From the IMG/VR virus record IMGVR_UViG_2671180986_000014: a stretch of 35,930 bases of DNA; one strand, written 5' to 3'. How positions within the stretch are numbered: the stretch's first letter is position 1; each line of letters opens with the position of its first letter. The notes below the pieces were generated by a model. The model was given only the letters and a program-made list of their open reading frames with translations. It did not search any database and was not told where the DNA came from. This stretch comes from a virus. Its lineage: Duplodnaviria; Heunggongvirae; Uroviricota; Caudoviricetes. The position numbers were made by a program, and so were the translations under genes. Below are positions 4,425 through 30,753 of this stretch, piece by piece.

Positions 4425-5609
4425 ATGAGTGAAACTCGTTTTCATGGTGCCCGTGTTACGGAAAGTACCAACCTGGTAACAGCGATTAATGATGTTGATT
4501 CCAGTGTTATCGGTATCGTGGCAACGGCGGATGATGCGGACGCGGAGCTGTTCCCGCTGAACAAGCCCACACTGCTGACCCGCGTCAATGACGTGCTGGG
4601 AAAATGCGGAACAACGGGGACGCTTTATCGTGCGCTTAAGGCCATCGCAGACCAGGTGAGCACAAAGGTGATCGTCGTTCGCGTGGCTGAACACAAAGAA
4701 GAAGACGGAAAAACGCAGGATCAACTGGTTATCGGTGGTTCTGAATCTGACGGCAGCTATACGGGGATGTATGCGCTGCTTGTTGCAGAGCAGGATGAAA
4801 GCATCGGATACCGTCCGCGTATTCTGGCCGCGCCGGAGCTGGACACGGAGGCGGTAACAAAATCCCTGTGCGTGATTGCAGGTAAACTGCGCGCGTTTGT
4901 GTATGCCTCATGTCACGGCTGTAACACGATGGCTGAGGCGATTACCTACCGCCAGAAATTCAACGAACGTGAGGTGATGCTCTTATGGCCGGACTTCATC
5001 GCCTGGAACCCGAAAAGTGGCAAAAACGAAACGTTCCCCGCGCCTGCCTATGCGTGCGGCCTTCGTGCGTACATTGACCATGAGCAGGGCTGGCACAAAT
5101 CATTGTCCAACGTTCCGGTTAAAAATGTGCTGGGGATGTCGAGGCATGTGTTCTGGTCGTTGCAGGCCGAAGACAGCGATGCCAACAGCCTCAACAACAA
5201 AGAAATCACGACCATTATTCGTCGTAACGGGTTCCGCTTCTGGGGCAACCGCACACCGGAAACGAACGCCTACATCTTTGAGGTGTATACCCGAACCGCA
5301 CAGGTGCTGGCTGATTCAATTGTGGAAGCGCAGTTTGAAACCATCGACAGTCCACTGACGCCTGCGAACGTGAAGGATGTTATCAGTGCCATCAGGGCAA
5401 GACTGGATTCACTGGTGACTGCCGGGAAACTGATTGGGGCGTCGTGCTGGTATGACGTGGTGGATAACGGCACCACGGATTTACGTCAGGGGCGCGTGCG
5501 TATTCGCTACAAATATACGCCCGTTCCGCCACTGGAAGATATGGAGCTTTACCAGACGTTTACTGATGAATTCTTTGGTCCCGCATTTGCGGTGCTGGGA
5601 GGTGTCTGA
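4425..5609 (+). CDS. FI: contractile tail sheath protein FI
   Basis: 394-aa ORF with P2 FI-like motifs (KLRAF, RELM..WPDF, IRRNGFRFWGNRT, YKYTPVPPLE); AAGGGG ribosome-binding site. Confidence 0.9.
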   Translation: MSETRFHGARVTESTNLVTAINDVDSSVIGIVATADDADAELFPLNKPTLLTRVNDVLGKCGTTGTLYRALKAIADQVSTKVIVVRVAEHKEEDGKTQDQLVIGGSESDGSYTGMYALLVAEQDESIGYRPRILAAPELDTEAVTKSLCVIAGKLRAFVYASCHGCNTMAEAITYRQKFNEREVMLLWPDFIAWNPKSGKNETFPAPAYACGLRAYIDHEQGWHKSLSNVPVKNVLGMSRHVFWSLQAEDSDANSLNNKEITTIIRRNGFRFWGNRTPETNAYIFEVYTRTAQVLADSIVEAQFETIDSPLTPANVKDVISAIRARLDSLVTAGKLIGASCWYDVVDNGTTDLRQGRVRIRYKYTPVPPLEDMELYQTFTDEFFGPAFAVLGGV

Positions 5610-6121
5610 TGGCTGTACCAAAAAATCTTCGTTTTTTTACGCTGTTTGTGGATGGTGAAAACGAAGTGGGTAAGGTGACGTCCGTCACTCTGCCTAAACT
5701 GACGCGCAAAACCGACAGCTACCGGGGTGGTGGCATGATGGGGGCAGTAAGTATTGATCTCGGCCTGGACGACTCCGCGCTTGATGCGAGCTTTGTCATG
5801 GGGGGCGCAGTTCGTGAGTTGTTCCTGAAGTATGGCGGCACGATTGACGGTACGCTGCTGCGTTTTGCGGGTGAATACTACACCGACGCTGAAAGCGACC
5901 TGTATGAAGTCGAAATGCGCGGACGTGTGACGGAAATTGATATGGGGGAAGCCAAACAGGGTGAGGCCACATCACACACTTACGCCATTAAAAACACCTA
6001 CTACAAGCTGAGTGTTAACGATCGCCCGTTGTGGGAGATTGACCTGCTGAACTTCATTTACCGGAAGGACGGCAGGGACATTGTGCCCGATCGCATCCGT
6101 TCCGCGCTCGGGCTTGGCTGA
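5609..6121 (+). CDS. FII: tail tube protein FII
   Basis: 170-aa ORF; start overlaps FI stop (TGATG); LPKLTRK...YRGGGM and FAGEYY resemble P2 FII. Confidence 0.9.
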   Translation: MAVPKNLRFFTLFVDGENEVGKVTSVTLPKLTRKTDSYRGGGMMGAVSIDLGLDDSALDASFVMGGAVRELFLKYGGTIDGTLLRFAGEYYTDAESDLYEVEMRGRVTEIDMGEAKQGEATSHTYAIKNTYYKLSVNDRPLWEIDLLNFIYRKDGRDIVPDRIRSALGLG

Positions 6122-24990: not shown

Positions 24991-25009
24991 TGGGGCTGTC
25001 CTTTTTACC
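24974..25009. terminator. bidirectional rho-independent terminator shared by Q and the convergent gene
   Basis: A6 - cagcccc - gtga - ggggctg - T-tract; both stop codons lie within the structure. Confidence 0.7.
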
Positions 25010-25529
25010 AGAGTTGAACCATTTTCTGGGTGCCGTCAGGCTTGAGATTATCAATTTCAGAGAGAACGTAATATTGAATGGCTTCACAAACGGTGGTGTA
25101 TGGTGAATTACCTTCTTTAAGTGGCACGATATTATTATTAACGCGAACCTGTATTTCATCGTTATACATTGCGATCGAAAGAGGAGTATGCACGAACGCG
25201 ACTTCGCCAGGTGTGTCGTCAACTACTGTCTCAATGCTAAAAGTCAGTTTTCGCTCATCATTGCTGCCCCGTGCTTTGGGGGTAGCGGCAGGGATCTGGG
25301 ATAAAGGCATTCTGCGAAATCCGTCAGCCGCTTCCAGTCCGCATGAAACGTAATGCTGGTGATTACCGTCGCTATCCGTCCATGTCTGTGATGGCAGATC
25401 CAGCGAGATTTCATAAGCATCAACAATGCCCTGGGCAAGGCGTACAAGCGGGGTCAGATCTTCATTGCGGCGAAAACTCTCCTTTACCTGCTCTCGTTTT
25501 TCTCGTAACTGCTTGTAATTAATGACCAT
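25005..25529 (-). CDS. hypothetical protein, paralog 1 of a tandem pair (174 aa)
   Basis: GGAGG ribosome-binding site before ATG 25527-25529; shares YE..L.LPS..W.D.DG..H.YV..GL with paralog 2. Confidence 0.6.
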   Translation of the reverse strand: MVINYKQLREKREQVKESFRRNEDLTPLVRLAQGIVDAYEISLDLPSQTWTDSDGNHQHYVSCGLEAADGFRRMPLSQIPAATPKARGSNDERKLTFSIETVVDDTPGEVAFVHTPLSIAMYNDEIQVRVNNNIVPLKEGNSPYTTVCEAIQYYVLSEIDNLKPDGTQKMVQLW

Positions 25530-25734: not shown

Positions 25735-26238
25735 TTAACGAAGTGCTGATGGCGCGCGCTTTTTCAGGTGATTAGCGATGTGCTTTTTCACATGCATAAC
25801 AACATCGCCCCAGGCTTCTTCACTGGGTTTATTGATAAATACGCGAACAGAAATATCGTCTTCCACCCGGACTCTCAGAGACACCCGTTCCGCATCCACT
25901 GAATATAATTCAAGTGCAATAACCACGCTTACGGGGTAGCTGCAATCAGATGACTTAACCCAGGTTCGCACGGCCATGCGAAAAATATTGTCTGGTGTAG
26001 ATGCGATATTGTGGACTGAAAGCGGACTAAAATCCGCTGCCGTCTTACATGGCAAGCCTGTCTCCACGTAGCGGTGCAGGTCGCCATCATCGTCTTCCCA
26101 GTACATGGATGGAAGCCCCAGCCATTCTTCATAGAAATCAATCAGCCTTGCTGCTTCATCCCGCAAAATTTGCGCTGCCTCAGCGCGTTTTTCTTCAGCT
26201 TCACGATTGATCTGGCATAAATCATTAAAGTGGCTCAT
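25735..26238 (-). CDS. hypothetical protein, paralog 2 (167 aa from ATG 26236-26238)
   Basis: AAGAGGA ribosome-binding site before the internal ATG; track start further upstream is not supported. Confidence 0.6.
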   Translation of the reverse strand: MSHFNDLCQINREAEEKRAEAAQILRDEAARLIDFYEEWLGLPSMYWEDDDGDLHRYVETGLPCKTAADFSPLSVHNIASTPDNIFRMAVRTWVKSSDCSYPVSVVIALELYSVDAERVSLRVRVEDDISVRVFINKPSEEAWGDVVMHVKKHIANHLKKRAPSALR

Positions 26239-26659
26239 GACATTATCCTCTTTTGAGTTGATGCCTGCCGCTATTCTGGCTTTGCCCGAACCCCCCTGCA
26301 AGCTGGTTATTCCATCAGATAATTTCACAACATCTCCAGCCCTGTAGCCATTATCGCCGGGCTGGTACTTACGTAACCCCGCAGTGCTGACTGCATGTTT
26401 CTCGCTGCCTCAGTGCGATTTTGACGGTCTTACCTTTCAGCCCATCAAATCAGAACCCCTCACGTCTTTTTCACGCTCAGCGTGAGAAATACAGCCATTC
26501 TGTTGTGTCGCTGCGACATCGTTCAGGGAATGCTATTTACCCCCTGAAACGCGGGCTGTTCCCCCGTCACCTGCGCGCAGAAAAAACGCGTTTTTTTGTG
26601 CACGCACGGATCCTTGACGGATCCAGTCGCCACGCGGGCCGGAAGGGTAAAAAGTTGTT

Positions 26660-26706
26660 CAAAAAAATTGTGCAAATTTGTGCACTATTGTGCGGTGTAT
26701 AAAATG
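26660..26706 (+). promoter_or_regulatory. candidate phd/doc promoter-operator: three TTGTGC repeats at 10-bp spacing followed by a TATAAA-like -10
   Basis: TTGTGC at 26668, 26678, 26688; gtataaaat at 26696-26704; TTGACG -35 candidate at 26614. Confidence 0.3.
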
Positions 26707-26767
26707 AAAATATGGCGGTGTTATTACTGCCCAACAAGCCGTTATACTTACGTTATGGGCGTGCATA

Positions 26768-27124
26768 ATGGAAATGAATATGAAAACTGTAACTGATGAT
26801 GAATTTCGTGAGAACCTGAGTGAAATTCTGGATTACCTTTCTTCCGGTGGCAGTGTCGTTATCACGGCGCAGGGAGGGAAGGATGTTGTTCTTGCTGGTT
26901 CTGATCTTAGTCCTGAAATACGGGCTGTCCTTGGCAAAACCAAAAAACTGCGGGATCAAATAAACAAAATGAAGCAACCACTCTTAATAAATGCAGTGAG
27001 AGATCTGGAAAAACGTCATCCAGCTCTTGTCGCACAGAGAAAAAAAGGATTGTCTTTTGAAGATGCAATGAAGCGTACAAGAGAAAAACATGCGGATATC
27101 ATTAAAAAGCTTGAGGATAACTGA
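26768..27124 (+). CDS. Phd/YefM-family antitoxin with C-terminal extension
   Basis: N-terminal region (FRENLSEILDYL...VVITAQGGKDVVLAG) has the Phd/YefM pattern; stop overlaps doc start (TGATG). Confidence 0.65.
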   Translation: MEMNMKTVTDDEFRENLSEILDYLSSGGSVVITAQGGKDVVLAGSDLSPEIRAVLGKTKKLRDQINKMKQPLLINAVRDLEKRHPALVAQRKKGLSFEDAMKRTREKHADIIKKLEDN

Positions 27125-27531
27125 TGGACATAGTGTTTTTGTCAAAAGAACAAGTAGAACGTATCCATGCTGAAACTTTACCCCAGAGCGGAAATGCCAA
27201 TGACGGGCTACTTGAAGGTGCTTTAAATCGCGTCAGGACACTACACTACTATGAAGGGGTTGATGATATTCATGCTCTGGCTGCTATGTATTTGATTGGT
27301 ATAGCCAAGGCTCATGCCTTTCATGATGGGAATAAACGCACAGCTTTTCAGGCTGCATCAATATTTTTAATGATGAACTCTTCCGAACTTTCAAACTCCC
27401 TGCTGCTGGTTAAATTAACGGTGTTTTCAGCAATGGGGATAGCTACCCTTGAGGAAGTTACCTTTGCTTTGAAATTGCTGTCTGATTATGGCAATGAATT
27501 AATCAGCGACTACGAAGAAGATTATATTTAA
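27124..27531 (+). CDS. doc: Doc (death-on-curing) toxin, Fic/Doc family
   Basis: Fic/Doc motif HAFHDGNKRTAF; 135 aa; translationally coupled to the antitoxin. Confidence 0.8.
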   Translation: MDIVFLSKEQVERIHAETLPQSGNANDGLLEGALNRVRTLHYYEGVDDIHALAAMYLIGIAKAHAFHDGNKRTAFQAASIFLMMNSSELSNSLLLVKLTVFSAMGIATLEEVTFALKLLSDYGNELISDYEEDYI

Positions 27532-27697
27532 TGCTGGCATACTCTGTCGTGTTAAGACAACAGCCTTTGCGGAGACAGGGCAGGGTGCCAGACTTGCCCG
27601 CAGCGCGTCTGACATGAGCAGTTATTCATCTTTTTTATTGTTTTTCTCCATGCAGGGCGACAGTGCGCCCCGATAAAATTAAAAGCCGTCAAATTCG

Positions 27698-28033
27698 TCA
27701 TTCATGCGTTTTTTCTTCATGGTCTGTCACTTCTCTCCTGATAACTTCATTGCACAAATCAACGCACTCATTGCAGATGTAAACAGACGGTCCGGCAATC
27801 ACCTTTGTGACTTCGTACTGGGATTTATTGCAGAAGCTGCAATAAATCGTCTCCTCACCTGAAGTCCATGTTTTGCTGGTTTCGCCAGACATCAGTTGTT
27901 TGAGGTCTTTTTCACGACGAAGAACTATCTGGCCACATTCAGCTATTTTTTGGATGTTGACATTTTCTTCTTTCGCCAGCGCTTCCATCCGCTCAATCAG
28001 TCGCTGCGCTTTTTCTCTGTCAATGCGTTGCAT
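27698..28033 (-). CDS. small protein with C-terminal ClpX-type C4 zinc-finger domain and N-terminal helical region
   Basis: [38 protein letters not shown] closely resembles the ClpX N-terminal zinc-binding domain; AAGGGGG ribosome-binding site. Confidence 0.7.
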
Positions 28034-29034
28034 TGTGTCCCCCTTGTTTATGTTCCCGGGTTAAAGTCATCAGGGCGGATGCGCCCTGATGTTGTGTTAT
28101 TCGGGAAATAACGCCCGGATATTTCCGGCCATCTGACTGGTTATCTGTGCGGTTGATACTGGCTGTGACGCGGGGCGTTCTGTCCTGGTTTGTGTCACTG
28201 ATAACGCTTCATCANNNNNNNNNNNNNNNNNNNNNNNNNNNNNNNNNNNNNNNNNNNNNNNNNNNNNNNNNNNNNNNNNNNNNNNNNNNNNNNNNNNNNN
28301 NNNNNNNNNNNNNNNNNNNNNNNNNNNNNNNNNNNNNNNNNNNNNNNNNNNNNNNNNNNNNNNNNNNNNNNNNNNNNNNNNNNNNNNNNNNNNNNNNNNN
28401 NNNNNNNNNNNNNNNNNNNNNNNNNNNNNNNNNNNNNNNNNNNNNNNNNNNNNNNNNNNNNNNNNNNNNNNNNNNNNNNNNNNNNNNNNNNNNNNNNNNN
28501 NNNNNNNNNNNNNNNNNNNNNNNNNNNNNNNNNNNNNNNNNNNNNNNNNNNNNNNNNNNNNNNNNNNNNNNNNNNNNNNNNNNNNNNNNNNNNNNNNNNN
28601 NNNNNNNNNNNNNNNNNNNNNNNNNNNNNNNNNNNNNNNNNNNNNNNNNNNNNNNNNNNNNNNNNNNNNNNNNNNNNNNNNNNNNNNNNNNNNNNNNNNN
28701 NNNNNNNNNNNNNNNNNNNNNNNNNNNNNNNNNNNNNNNNNNNNNNNNNNNNNNNNNNNNNNNNNNNNNNNNNNNNNNNNNNNNNNNNNNNNNNNNNNNN
28801 NNNNNNNNNNNNNNNNNNNNNNNNNNNNNNNNNNNNNNNNNNNNNNNNNNNNNNNNNNNNNNNNNNNNNNNNNNNNNNNNNNNNNNNNNNNNNNNNNNNN
28901 NNNNNNNNNNNNNNNNNNNNNNNNNNNNNNNNNNNNNNNNNNNNNNNNNNNNNNNNNNNNNNNNNNNNNNNNNNNNNNNNNNNNNNNNNNNNNNNNNNNN
29001 NNNNNNNNNNNNNNNNNNNNNNNNNNNNNNNNNN

Positions 29035-29489
29035 CCAGCCGGAATGGATTCAGGCATAACCCGTACGTTACGGATAGTAAATGCTTCGCTGTTCTGGTAC
29101 TCCACCGGGCGCATAACGTTCGCTTTTTTGCGGCTGATGTTGGCCATGTCCGGCTGTGCGTTTGTGTCGAAATACTCGCTCAGTGGCAGGGTGACAACCA
29201 CATCCACCTCCTGTGGCGTGATGCCTGATTTGACCAGCGCGTGATGAATGGCAATGACATTCACATCGCTGTACTGGTATTGCGTGTCGGTCGTCTGGAC
29301 AAAGCGATCGCTGACCGGATCAAAACCATAGCGCACGCCATCAAGCATGTAGTTCGCGGGCTGCGTGCCACCGAACGGCGCAGACCATTCCGACTTGAAG
29401 CTGTTCGGGCTGATGGCGTTGCGGCGTTCGCCGTTCTCAGTCCATGCCAGCTTGATGTTGGTGGAGCCGTCGTCGATACAAATTTTCAT
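29035..29489 (-). CDS. parM: ParM/StbA-family actin-like partition ATPase, visible N-terminal ~150 aa; rest masked by 820 N
   Basis: MKICIDDGSTNIKLAW...SPNSFK...YSDVNVIAIHHAL...VMPESIPA tracks plasmid R1 ParM closely; AAGGAAAA ribosome-binding site. Confidence 0.8.
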
Positions 29490-30025: not shown

Positions 30026-30753
30026 NNNNNNNNNNNNNNNNNNNNNNNNNNNNNNNNNNNNNNNNNNNNNNNNNNNNNNNNNNNNNNNNNNNNNNNNNNN
30101 NNNNNNNNNNNNNNNNNNNNNNNNNNNNNNNNNNNNNNNNNNNNNNNNNNNNNNNNNNNNNNNNNNNNNNNNNNNNNNNNNNNNNNNNNNNNNNNNNNNN
30201 NNNNNNNNNNNNNNNNNNNNNNNNNNNNNNNNNNNNNNNNNNNNNNNNNNNNNNNNNNNNNNNNNNNNNNNNNNNNNNNNNNNNNNNNNNNNNNNNNNNN
30301 NNNNNNNNNNNNNNNNNNNNNNNNNNNNNNNNNNNNNNNNNNNNNNNNNNNNNNNNNNNNNNNNNNNNNNNNNNNNNNNNNNNNNNNNNNNNNNNNNNNN
30401 NNNNNNNNNNNNNNNNNNNNNNNNNNNNNNNNNNNNNNNNNNNNNNNNNNNNNNNNNNNNNNNNNNNNNNNNNNNNNNNNNNNNNNNNNNNNNNNNNNNN
30501 NNNNNNNNNNNNNNNNNNNNNNNNNNNNNNNNNNNNNNNNNNNNNNNNNNNNNNNNNNNNNNNNNNNNNNNNNNNNNNNNNNNNNNNNNNNNNNNNNNNN
30601 NNNNNNNNNNNNNNNNNNNNNNNNNNNNNNNNNNNNNNNNNNNNNNNNNNNNNNNNNNNNNNNNNNNNNNNNNNNNNNNNNNNNNNNNNNNNNNNNNNNN
30701 NNNNNNNNGTACGCNNNNNNNNNNNNNNNNNNNNNNNNNNNNNNNNNNNNNNN

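Follow-up and report, generated by a model that had tools for sequence, protein, structure and literature searches.

The window, the whole 35,930-nucleotide stretch of DNA that was analysed, is a P88-like prophage (Xuanwuvirus, P2-family Peduoviridae) of E. coli. Its minus strand encodes, at 27698..28033, a 111-residue protein with a stand-alone ClpX-type zinc-binding domain (ZBD), identified from its open reading frame, PF06689 and phrog_6797. The chances seem about even that this protein is a decoy of N-domain-dependent ClpXP recognition which is made together with the early genes. The domain itself and its RefSeq name, 'ClpX C4-type zinc finger protein', were already known, and the functional proposal added here comes from sequence inference. 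Searches of the full-text literature returned neither a functional study of this protein family nor a phage ZBD decoy. The gene is 100% identical to a chromosomal copy in E. coli strain 1190.

The whole protein matches phrog_6797 (PHROG 6797), a family without an assigned function, over its full length (E 1.6e-57). It is comprised of three parts, all encoded on the minus strand. Codons 1-48 (27890..28033) form a two-helix hairpin, which is defined by the AF2 model, phmmer and conservation in the family. They are followed by a flexible linker (codons 49-62, 27848..27889), in which the AF2 pLDDT falls below 50 at residues 53-59, and by the ClpX-type C4 ZBD (codons 63-102, 27728..27847), which is supported by profile, PDB matches, alignment and model. 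The protein ends nine residues past the ZBD. The helices of the hairpin span residues 6-23 and 27-48 with pLDDT of 86-95, in agreement with the original description of a helical region before the domain. The linker varies in length and sequence within the family and is longer in P0019, a 41%-identical member for which AF2 yields the same architecture. Full-length relatives, 35-58% identical, all consist of hairpin, linker and ZBD. The pI is 5.2-5.7 throughout the family, and such acidity speaks against the binding of nucleic acids.

A Shine-Dalgarno sequence, AAGGGGGA, can be read at 28038..28045 on the minus strand, four bases before the ATG, and in the alignment other genes that take the first cargo position start from this junction too. 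Many records, including P88 gp19, D6 gp034, P0001 and P0003, label the protein a 'carboxylate--amine ligase'. Nothing in the sequence backs this label, which appears to be an annotation error that has been propagated widely in the records. The first CxxC codons of the gene are covered exactly by a perfect inverted repeat (27822-27848; GATTTATTGCAG CTT CTGCAATAAATC) whose 12-bp arms are separated by 3 nt. All phage family members have the core of this repeat, TTGCAGCTTCTGCAA, and host clpX does not; the repeat could have arisen by chance and been passed on to descendants, or be an element that acts in RNA or DNA.

The assignment of the domain to the ClpX C4 family, made originally from the sequence together with a proposal to check it by HMM, is borne out by the profile search. 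Pfam zf-C4_ClpX (PF06689) covers residues 64-99 with 62.6 bits against a cut-off of 27 (E 3.1e-17) and is the sole Pfam match of the protein. The PDB entries 1ovx and 2ds5, both of the ClpX ZBD, are matched with E about 1e-19, and the AF2 model of the domain superimposes on 2ds5, 2ds6 and 2ds8 with rmsd of 0.6-0.8 Å and TM of 0.87-0.91. The zinc ligands C65, C68, C87 and C90 (CxxC-x18-CxxC) are invariant in an alignment of 15 sequences, and 30 of the 43 residues aligned with E. coli K-12 ClpX are identical. TIGR00382, the model of ClpX, scores 49 bits against a cut-off of 371 and is covered at model residues 6-53 alone; the AAA+ ATPase module with the ClpP-docking IGF loop is absent by this model. 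Since the NCBIfam ClpX models are covered over about their first 50 positions and score far under their cut-offs, the protein contains a ClpX domain but is not ClpX.

Of the residues with which the ClpX ZBD contacts its ligands, some are kept and others are changed. F16 and I46 of ClpX form a hydrophobic pocket for lambda O, TF (trigger factor), SspB and RssB (PMC7804408). The counterpart of F16, F67, is invariant in the 15-sequence alignment, and that of I46 is V97 in the window protein and I in most members. All positions that are invariant in 51 distinct ClpX ZBDs, a set biased towards query-like sequences, are retained in the window protein except for the conservative I46V. ClpX L12, L13 and H23, which contribute to the recognition of the MqsA antitoxin by the ClpX N-domain (PMC8808172), are replaced by T, I and Y. 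Two of these changes, L12 to T and H23 to Y, fall at MqsA/SspB recognition positions, so that the phage domain may have a shifted specificity. In the D6-type subfamily, P31, S32, Y34 and L42 of ClpX are not kept.

At the nucleotide level the gene and E. coli clpX are 65% identical, and 17 of the 30 codons for identical residues differ, including AGC/TCT serine switches. A blastn search of E. coli genomes with the gene did not match host clpX. The codon divergence and this negative search rule out a recent capture from clpX. The dN/dS between subfamilies is 0.22-0.44. The ClpX-invariant residues were retained even though synonymous sites are saturated, which argues for selection for ClpX-like contacts and indicates, as far as sequence comparison can tell, that the likeness to ClpX is held by selection beyond the needs of zinc-ribbon folding. 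It is extremely improbable that the gene is a functionless, decaying fragment of a captured clpX. Truncated and frameshifted variants do occur in databases, and a remnant of eight codons is found in E. coli AVS0533, but intact reading frames persist in several phage groups, 35-50% identical and with dN/dS below 0.45. The conserved and novel N-terminal domain, the strong ribosome-binding site and the saturation of synonymous sites relative to clpX also speak against decay.

The isolated ClpX ZBD, added in trans at 5-20 µM, blocks the RssB-dependent degradation of sigmaS by ClpXP in vitro (PMC7226468). This inhibition, taken with the selected ClpX-like ZBD of the phage protein, makes a decoy the best reading. 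For inhibition in trans, ZBD had to exceed ClpXP by a factor of roughly 10 to 30, and a decoy would accordingly require high expression or added avidity. The protein would be expressed once the prophage turns to lytic growth, as transcripts of the early (gpA) operon read through into its gene, a timing that is taken from the gene order. With the ClpX fold and nearly all invariant residues kept, it would be expected to dimerise in the manner of ClpX. It would also be expected to bind the short docking motifs of the adaptors SspB and RssB and of N-domain-dependent substrates such as lambda-O-type initiators, UmuD and some antitoxins. The free protein would titrate these ligands off ClpXP and so stabilise a subset of proteins, and N-domain-independent degradation, for example of plain ssrA tags, would be unaffected. 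The tethered hairpin would probably, to speculate further, contribute avidity by self-association or bind a second partner. The decoy or anti-adaptor role that was originally suggested has thus kept a credible mechanism, given trans-inhibition (PMC7226468), the MqsA precedent (PMC8808172), the retained F16 and the conservative I46V, and has lost its tie to the neighbouring Phd/Doc genes.

The hairpin is conserved across the family. A word-indexed search with the N-terminal 62 residues alone retrieved family members only, and phmmer against 1.84 billion representative proteins found this region only fused to the ZBD. A eukaryotic repeat protein (P0126) that matched the N-terminal residues was judged spurious. 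Foldseek against the PDB gave matches for the ZBD and none for the hairpin. The N-terminal domain has no relatives that could reveal a partner. The hydrophobic residues of its helices occupy wide a/d/e positions, which can be read as a hydrophobic stripe, and the hairpin is possibly a dimerisation or partner-binding module. Within the D6 group its dN/dS is about 0.3, which implies a function of its own.

These properties bear on a different use of the same domain. The phage ZBD could pair either with its counterpart in host ClpX or with adaptors that have a ZBD bound, and thereby install the hairpin on ClpXP, re-targeting or gating the protease in lytic growth. In its most explicit form, the phage ZBD would heterodimerise with the ZBD of nascent ClpX subunits, and the hairpin, tethered in this way to the hexamer, would either block the pore or recruit proteins that are not normally substrates, such as those of host defence or regulation. 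Such a design, a partner module joined by a flexible tether to a ClpX-contacting module, mirrors adaptors like SspB; the ClpX-invariant core and interface positions are all conserved, and the hairpin itself is conserved and constrained (dN/dS about 0.3 in the D6 group). The ClpX ZBD dimer, however, is reported to be constitutive, with rapid cross-linking of the homodimer (PMC7226468), and subunit exchange may therefore be slow. The hairpin, moreover, has no identifiable cargo-binding fold. We consider pairing with ClpX distinctly unlikely in either form; if true, a virus would here be taking over an AAA+ protease by mimicry of its own docking domain.

The decoy reading includes synthesis with the early genes, which is suggested by the position of the gene. 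The order in the prophage is gpA replication endonuclease, ParM, ParP, a stem-loop, the ZBD gene, variable cargo and portal, so that the ZBD gene occupies the first cargo slot after gpA-ParM-ParP. As was noted at the outset, it is co-oriented with the parM operon: gpA, ParM, ParP and the ZBD gene all have the same orientation, and the Phd/Doc genes are convergent with the ZBD gene. The GC content is 44% in the ZBD gene, 41% in Phd/Doc and 58% in gpA. The last of the backbone genes before the ZBD gene is ParP, which is mentioned here as context, outside the function of the ZBD protein. Its unmasked 3' end lies at 28097..28214 (minus strand), and the whole gene, 312 nt at about 28097-28408 by homology on the same strand, is annotated for 'plasmid partitioning/stability' at a locus with an identical ZBD gene. 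The ZBD gene is therefore in the neighbourhood of parM, as had been described, but not directly adjacent to it, because ParP intervenes.

The window holds 25 runs of N (e.g. 28215-29034 and 30026-30708), which mask large parts of ParM/ParP, gpA and the structural genes. Reading frames listed across these runs are artefacts, among them a '425-aa' frame (28212-29489) that fuses ParM and ParP. The actin-like ParM and the small ParP, which span about 28097-29372 in the window (mostly masked) and 4662-5937 in locus L008, thus belong to the early genes of a P2-family prophage that is integrated, and 1296 of 5426 complete E. coli genomes (24%) carry them; such a plasmid-type segregation pair is puzzling in a phage that integrates. 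Between Phd/Doc and the portal, the cargo region contains two tandem, diverged paralogues (25005-25529 and 25735-26328, both on the minus strand). Both match phrog_5091 and they are 41% identical over 54 residues; neither has a Pfam or a PADLOC match.

Five nucleotides past the ParP stop there is a perfect 10-bp stem with a 4-nt loop (arms 28068-28077 and 28082-28091). The presence of a perfect inverted repeat had been predicted correctly, but its arms are of 10 bp at 28068-28091 and not of 9 bp at 28066-28089. The surrounding 91-nt region is stable (z = -5.1), and the stem-loop resembles a terminator only on the plus strand, which is antisense to the ZBD gene. Prophages that lack this gene still have the stem-loop, as seen in an alignment and in the many matches that end at query positions 1304-1364. 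A role as a ZBD-specific regulatory element is ruled out by this, since the stem-loop belongs to the backbone at the ParP end, where it marks the boundary of the conserved early operon. A promoter scan of the ZBD strand, with the DNA masked upstream of 28214, found no sigma-70-like site from ParP to the ATG. An independent promoter is therefore not supported, and we infer that transcripts of the early operon read through. No Rfam family matched 26300-28214 at E <= 1.

The full-length ZBD gene is present in about 112 E. coli genomes, to be compared with the 1296 that carry ParM/ParP. It is found in about 9% of P88-like E. coli prophages and is missing from about 91%, which makes it an optional first cargo gene and places it outside the partition operon. 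Where a P2-family backbone of another type has no ParM/ParP, relatives (35-50% identical) are always downstream of gpA and co-oriented with it. Neither observation supports a dedicated link to parM. All the P2-family backbones that were examined have the gene at the end of the early operon, in the orientation of gpA. P88-like backbones (L090-L092) carry a D6-type allele in the same slot, and relatives also occur in ea22/eaA-type early regions of phage D6, D6-like plasmids and SSU5-like phage-plasmids. The members on phage-plasmids have no ParM either. Some member of the family was found in 221 of the 5426 complete E. coli genomes (about 4%), on prophages and phage-plasmids. The ZBD gene is a mobile early accessory gene common to P2-family phages and to D6-like and SSU5-like phage-plasmids.

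In prophages without it, the ParP stop, the stem-loop and the ribosome-binding site are followed by other genes, e.g. Ea22-like ones. In E. coli C11 (L115, 3840-4430) an Ea22-like gene begins at the offset of the ZBD gene, and in E. coli AVS0533 (L116, 3840-3875) about the first eight ZBD codons remain, fused to unrelated sequence. The slot past the ParP stem-loop behaves like a cassette site. PADLOC returned no family at E <= 0.01 for the ZBD protein, and the alternative cargo genes were likewise unmatched.

Reading frames that consist of the ZBD only are also found in other temperate phages, and in the two cases examined, both in unrelated lambdoid-type phages, they adjoin replication genes. 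In the D3-like Pseudomonas phage phi1 (L017, 2495-2692) the frame follows a P-like gene. In the lambdoid Klebsiella phage ST846-OXA48phi9.2 (L018, 2501-2704) it is located between cII and an O/DnaC-type module, and is unannotated, an opposite-strand frame having been annotated instead. These two cases, and the constant proximity of the ZBD gene to replication genes in P2-family phages, would also suit a ZBD fold recruited for an early-operon job unrelated to ClpX, such as a zinc-ribbon protein-protein or nucleic-acid contact that serves replication, partition or regulation, the P2 Ogr/Delta zinc-finger activators being an example. Zinc ribbons of small size lend themselves to many uses. We nevertheless regard this explanation as rather doubtful, because PF06689 is the sole match of the protein, with no Ogr_Delta match, and related loci have separate Ogr-like genes. 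The proteins of the family are acidic, and ClpX-specific surface residues are conserved beyond the requirements of the fold. A gene that is dispensable in about 91% of P88-like prophages is no core replication or partition factor, and its proximity to replication genes fits the protection of an initiator from ClpXP equally well.

The Phd-like antitoxin (26768-27124) and the Doc toxin (27124-27531) are encoded on the plus strand, as optional cargo convergent with the ZBD gene. The antitoxin is long, at 118 residues (RefSeq places its start 12 nt later), and falls just under the Pfam threshold with 29.2 against 29.8 bits. Its C-terminal motif, GLSFE-A-K---E-HAD-IK-LE-N, is common to the window and the homologue in L095 and is presumably the Doc-neutralising segment.

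A dedicated function in this module was part of the original prediction: the ZBD protein would be a third component of Phd/Doc that stabilises the Phd-like antitoxin against ClpXP and sets the threshold at which Doc is triggered. The Phd of P1 is an established ClpXP substrate. Recognition of an antitoxin through the ClpX N-domain has a precedent (PMC8808172). The cassette was found in 20 E. coli genomes, in 18 of which it stands beside the ZBD gene. Its best matches are all at least 99% identical, the 20 listed records being 99.9-100% identical, which points to one recent acquisition and turns these 18 cases into a single event. When counted from the ZBD gene, Doc is contiguous in 18 of 112 E. 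coli genomes (16%), and 84% of the copies are without Doc, as are all members on phage-plasmids; neither these nor most P2-family members have Phd/Doc. About 41 P88-type loci were found in IMG/VR, of which four carry the cassette and the others a 104-aa gene, Ea22-like genes or other cargo. Among 16 viral loci with relatives of the window Doc, the ZBD gene is present in five (four of the window type, and L113, which is the L095 contig) and absent in 11. The latter include L099, where an identical cassette lies directly beside gpA, and the P2-like phages L103 and L104.

A second, independent juxtaposition is found in L095, which has another P2-family backbone and in which Doc is 56%, Phd 34% and the ZBD protein 35% identical to their counterparts in the window. 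Because of it, there may be an occasional, facultative interplay between Phd/Doc and the ZBD protein. The pair is arranged divergently in L095, upstream of the ZBD gene, and convergently here, so that the ZBD gene and Phd/Doc are not co-transcribed, and their co-occurrence is not conserved. The independent events are few and all of them fall in the same P2-family cargo hotspot, which does not establish a functional unit. A role as a third Phd/Doc component is therefore very unlikely, and the ZBD gene is no component of the ParM partition system or of Phd/Doc.

The ZBD of E. coli ClpX is the closest known counterpart of the phage domain, with the same C4 ligands and fold, about 72% identity, a retained F16, and I or V at I46. 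The phage ZBD differs from it in being phage-encoded and free of the AAA+ module, in its C-terminal position behind a novel hairpin and linker, and in T for L12 and Y for H23 at ligand-contact positions. Other AAA+ proteases are modulated by T4 PinA and T7 Gp4.5, which act on Lon, and by lambda CIII, which acts on FtsH. SPO1 Gp53 acts on ClpCP (PMC6873191). Like these, the ZBD protein would be a small early phage protein that reprograms a host ATP-dependent protease, but none of the four is known to copy a domain of the protease itself or to target recognition by the ClpX N-domain. Free ClpX-type ZBDs of temperate phages, early or close to replication genes, are also found in phrog_12435 and phrog_5259 (e.g. 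a 65-aa protein of Pseudomonas phage phi1), which are without the N-terminal hairpin that defines phrog_6797. The late-gene activators P2 Ogr and P4 Delta are likewise small C4 zinc proteins of P2-family phages. They belong, however, to PF04606, which the ZBD protein does not match, and related prophages carry separate Ogr-like genes. The proposed outcome of decoy action matches that of the anti-adaptors IraD, IraM, IraP and IraL, which block the delivery of sigmaS to ClpXP by RssB. IraD and the ClpX ZBD have been reported to share an overlapping site on RssB (PMC7226468). The Ira proteins have no kinship in sequence or fold with the phage ZBD, which would mimic the docking domain of the protease itself and so would not be limited to RssB.

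The substrates that ClpXP selects through its N-domain include sigmaS via RssB, ssrA-tagged proteins via SspB, UmuD', phage replication initiators and some antitoxins. That a virus has copied a protease docking domain is plausible for the ZBD protein and can be tested directly. A natural phage-borne copy kept by selection would show that viruses exploit the N-domain as a weak point of ClpXP, and would supply a genetically encoded blocker of N-domain-dependent ClpXP proteolysis alone. It would also indicate which host and phage proteins need to be shielded from ClpXP in the development of temperate phages.
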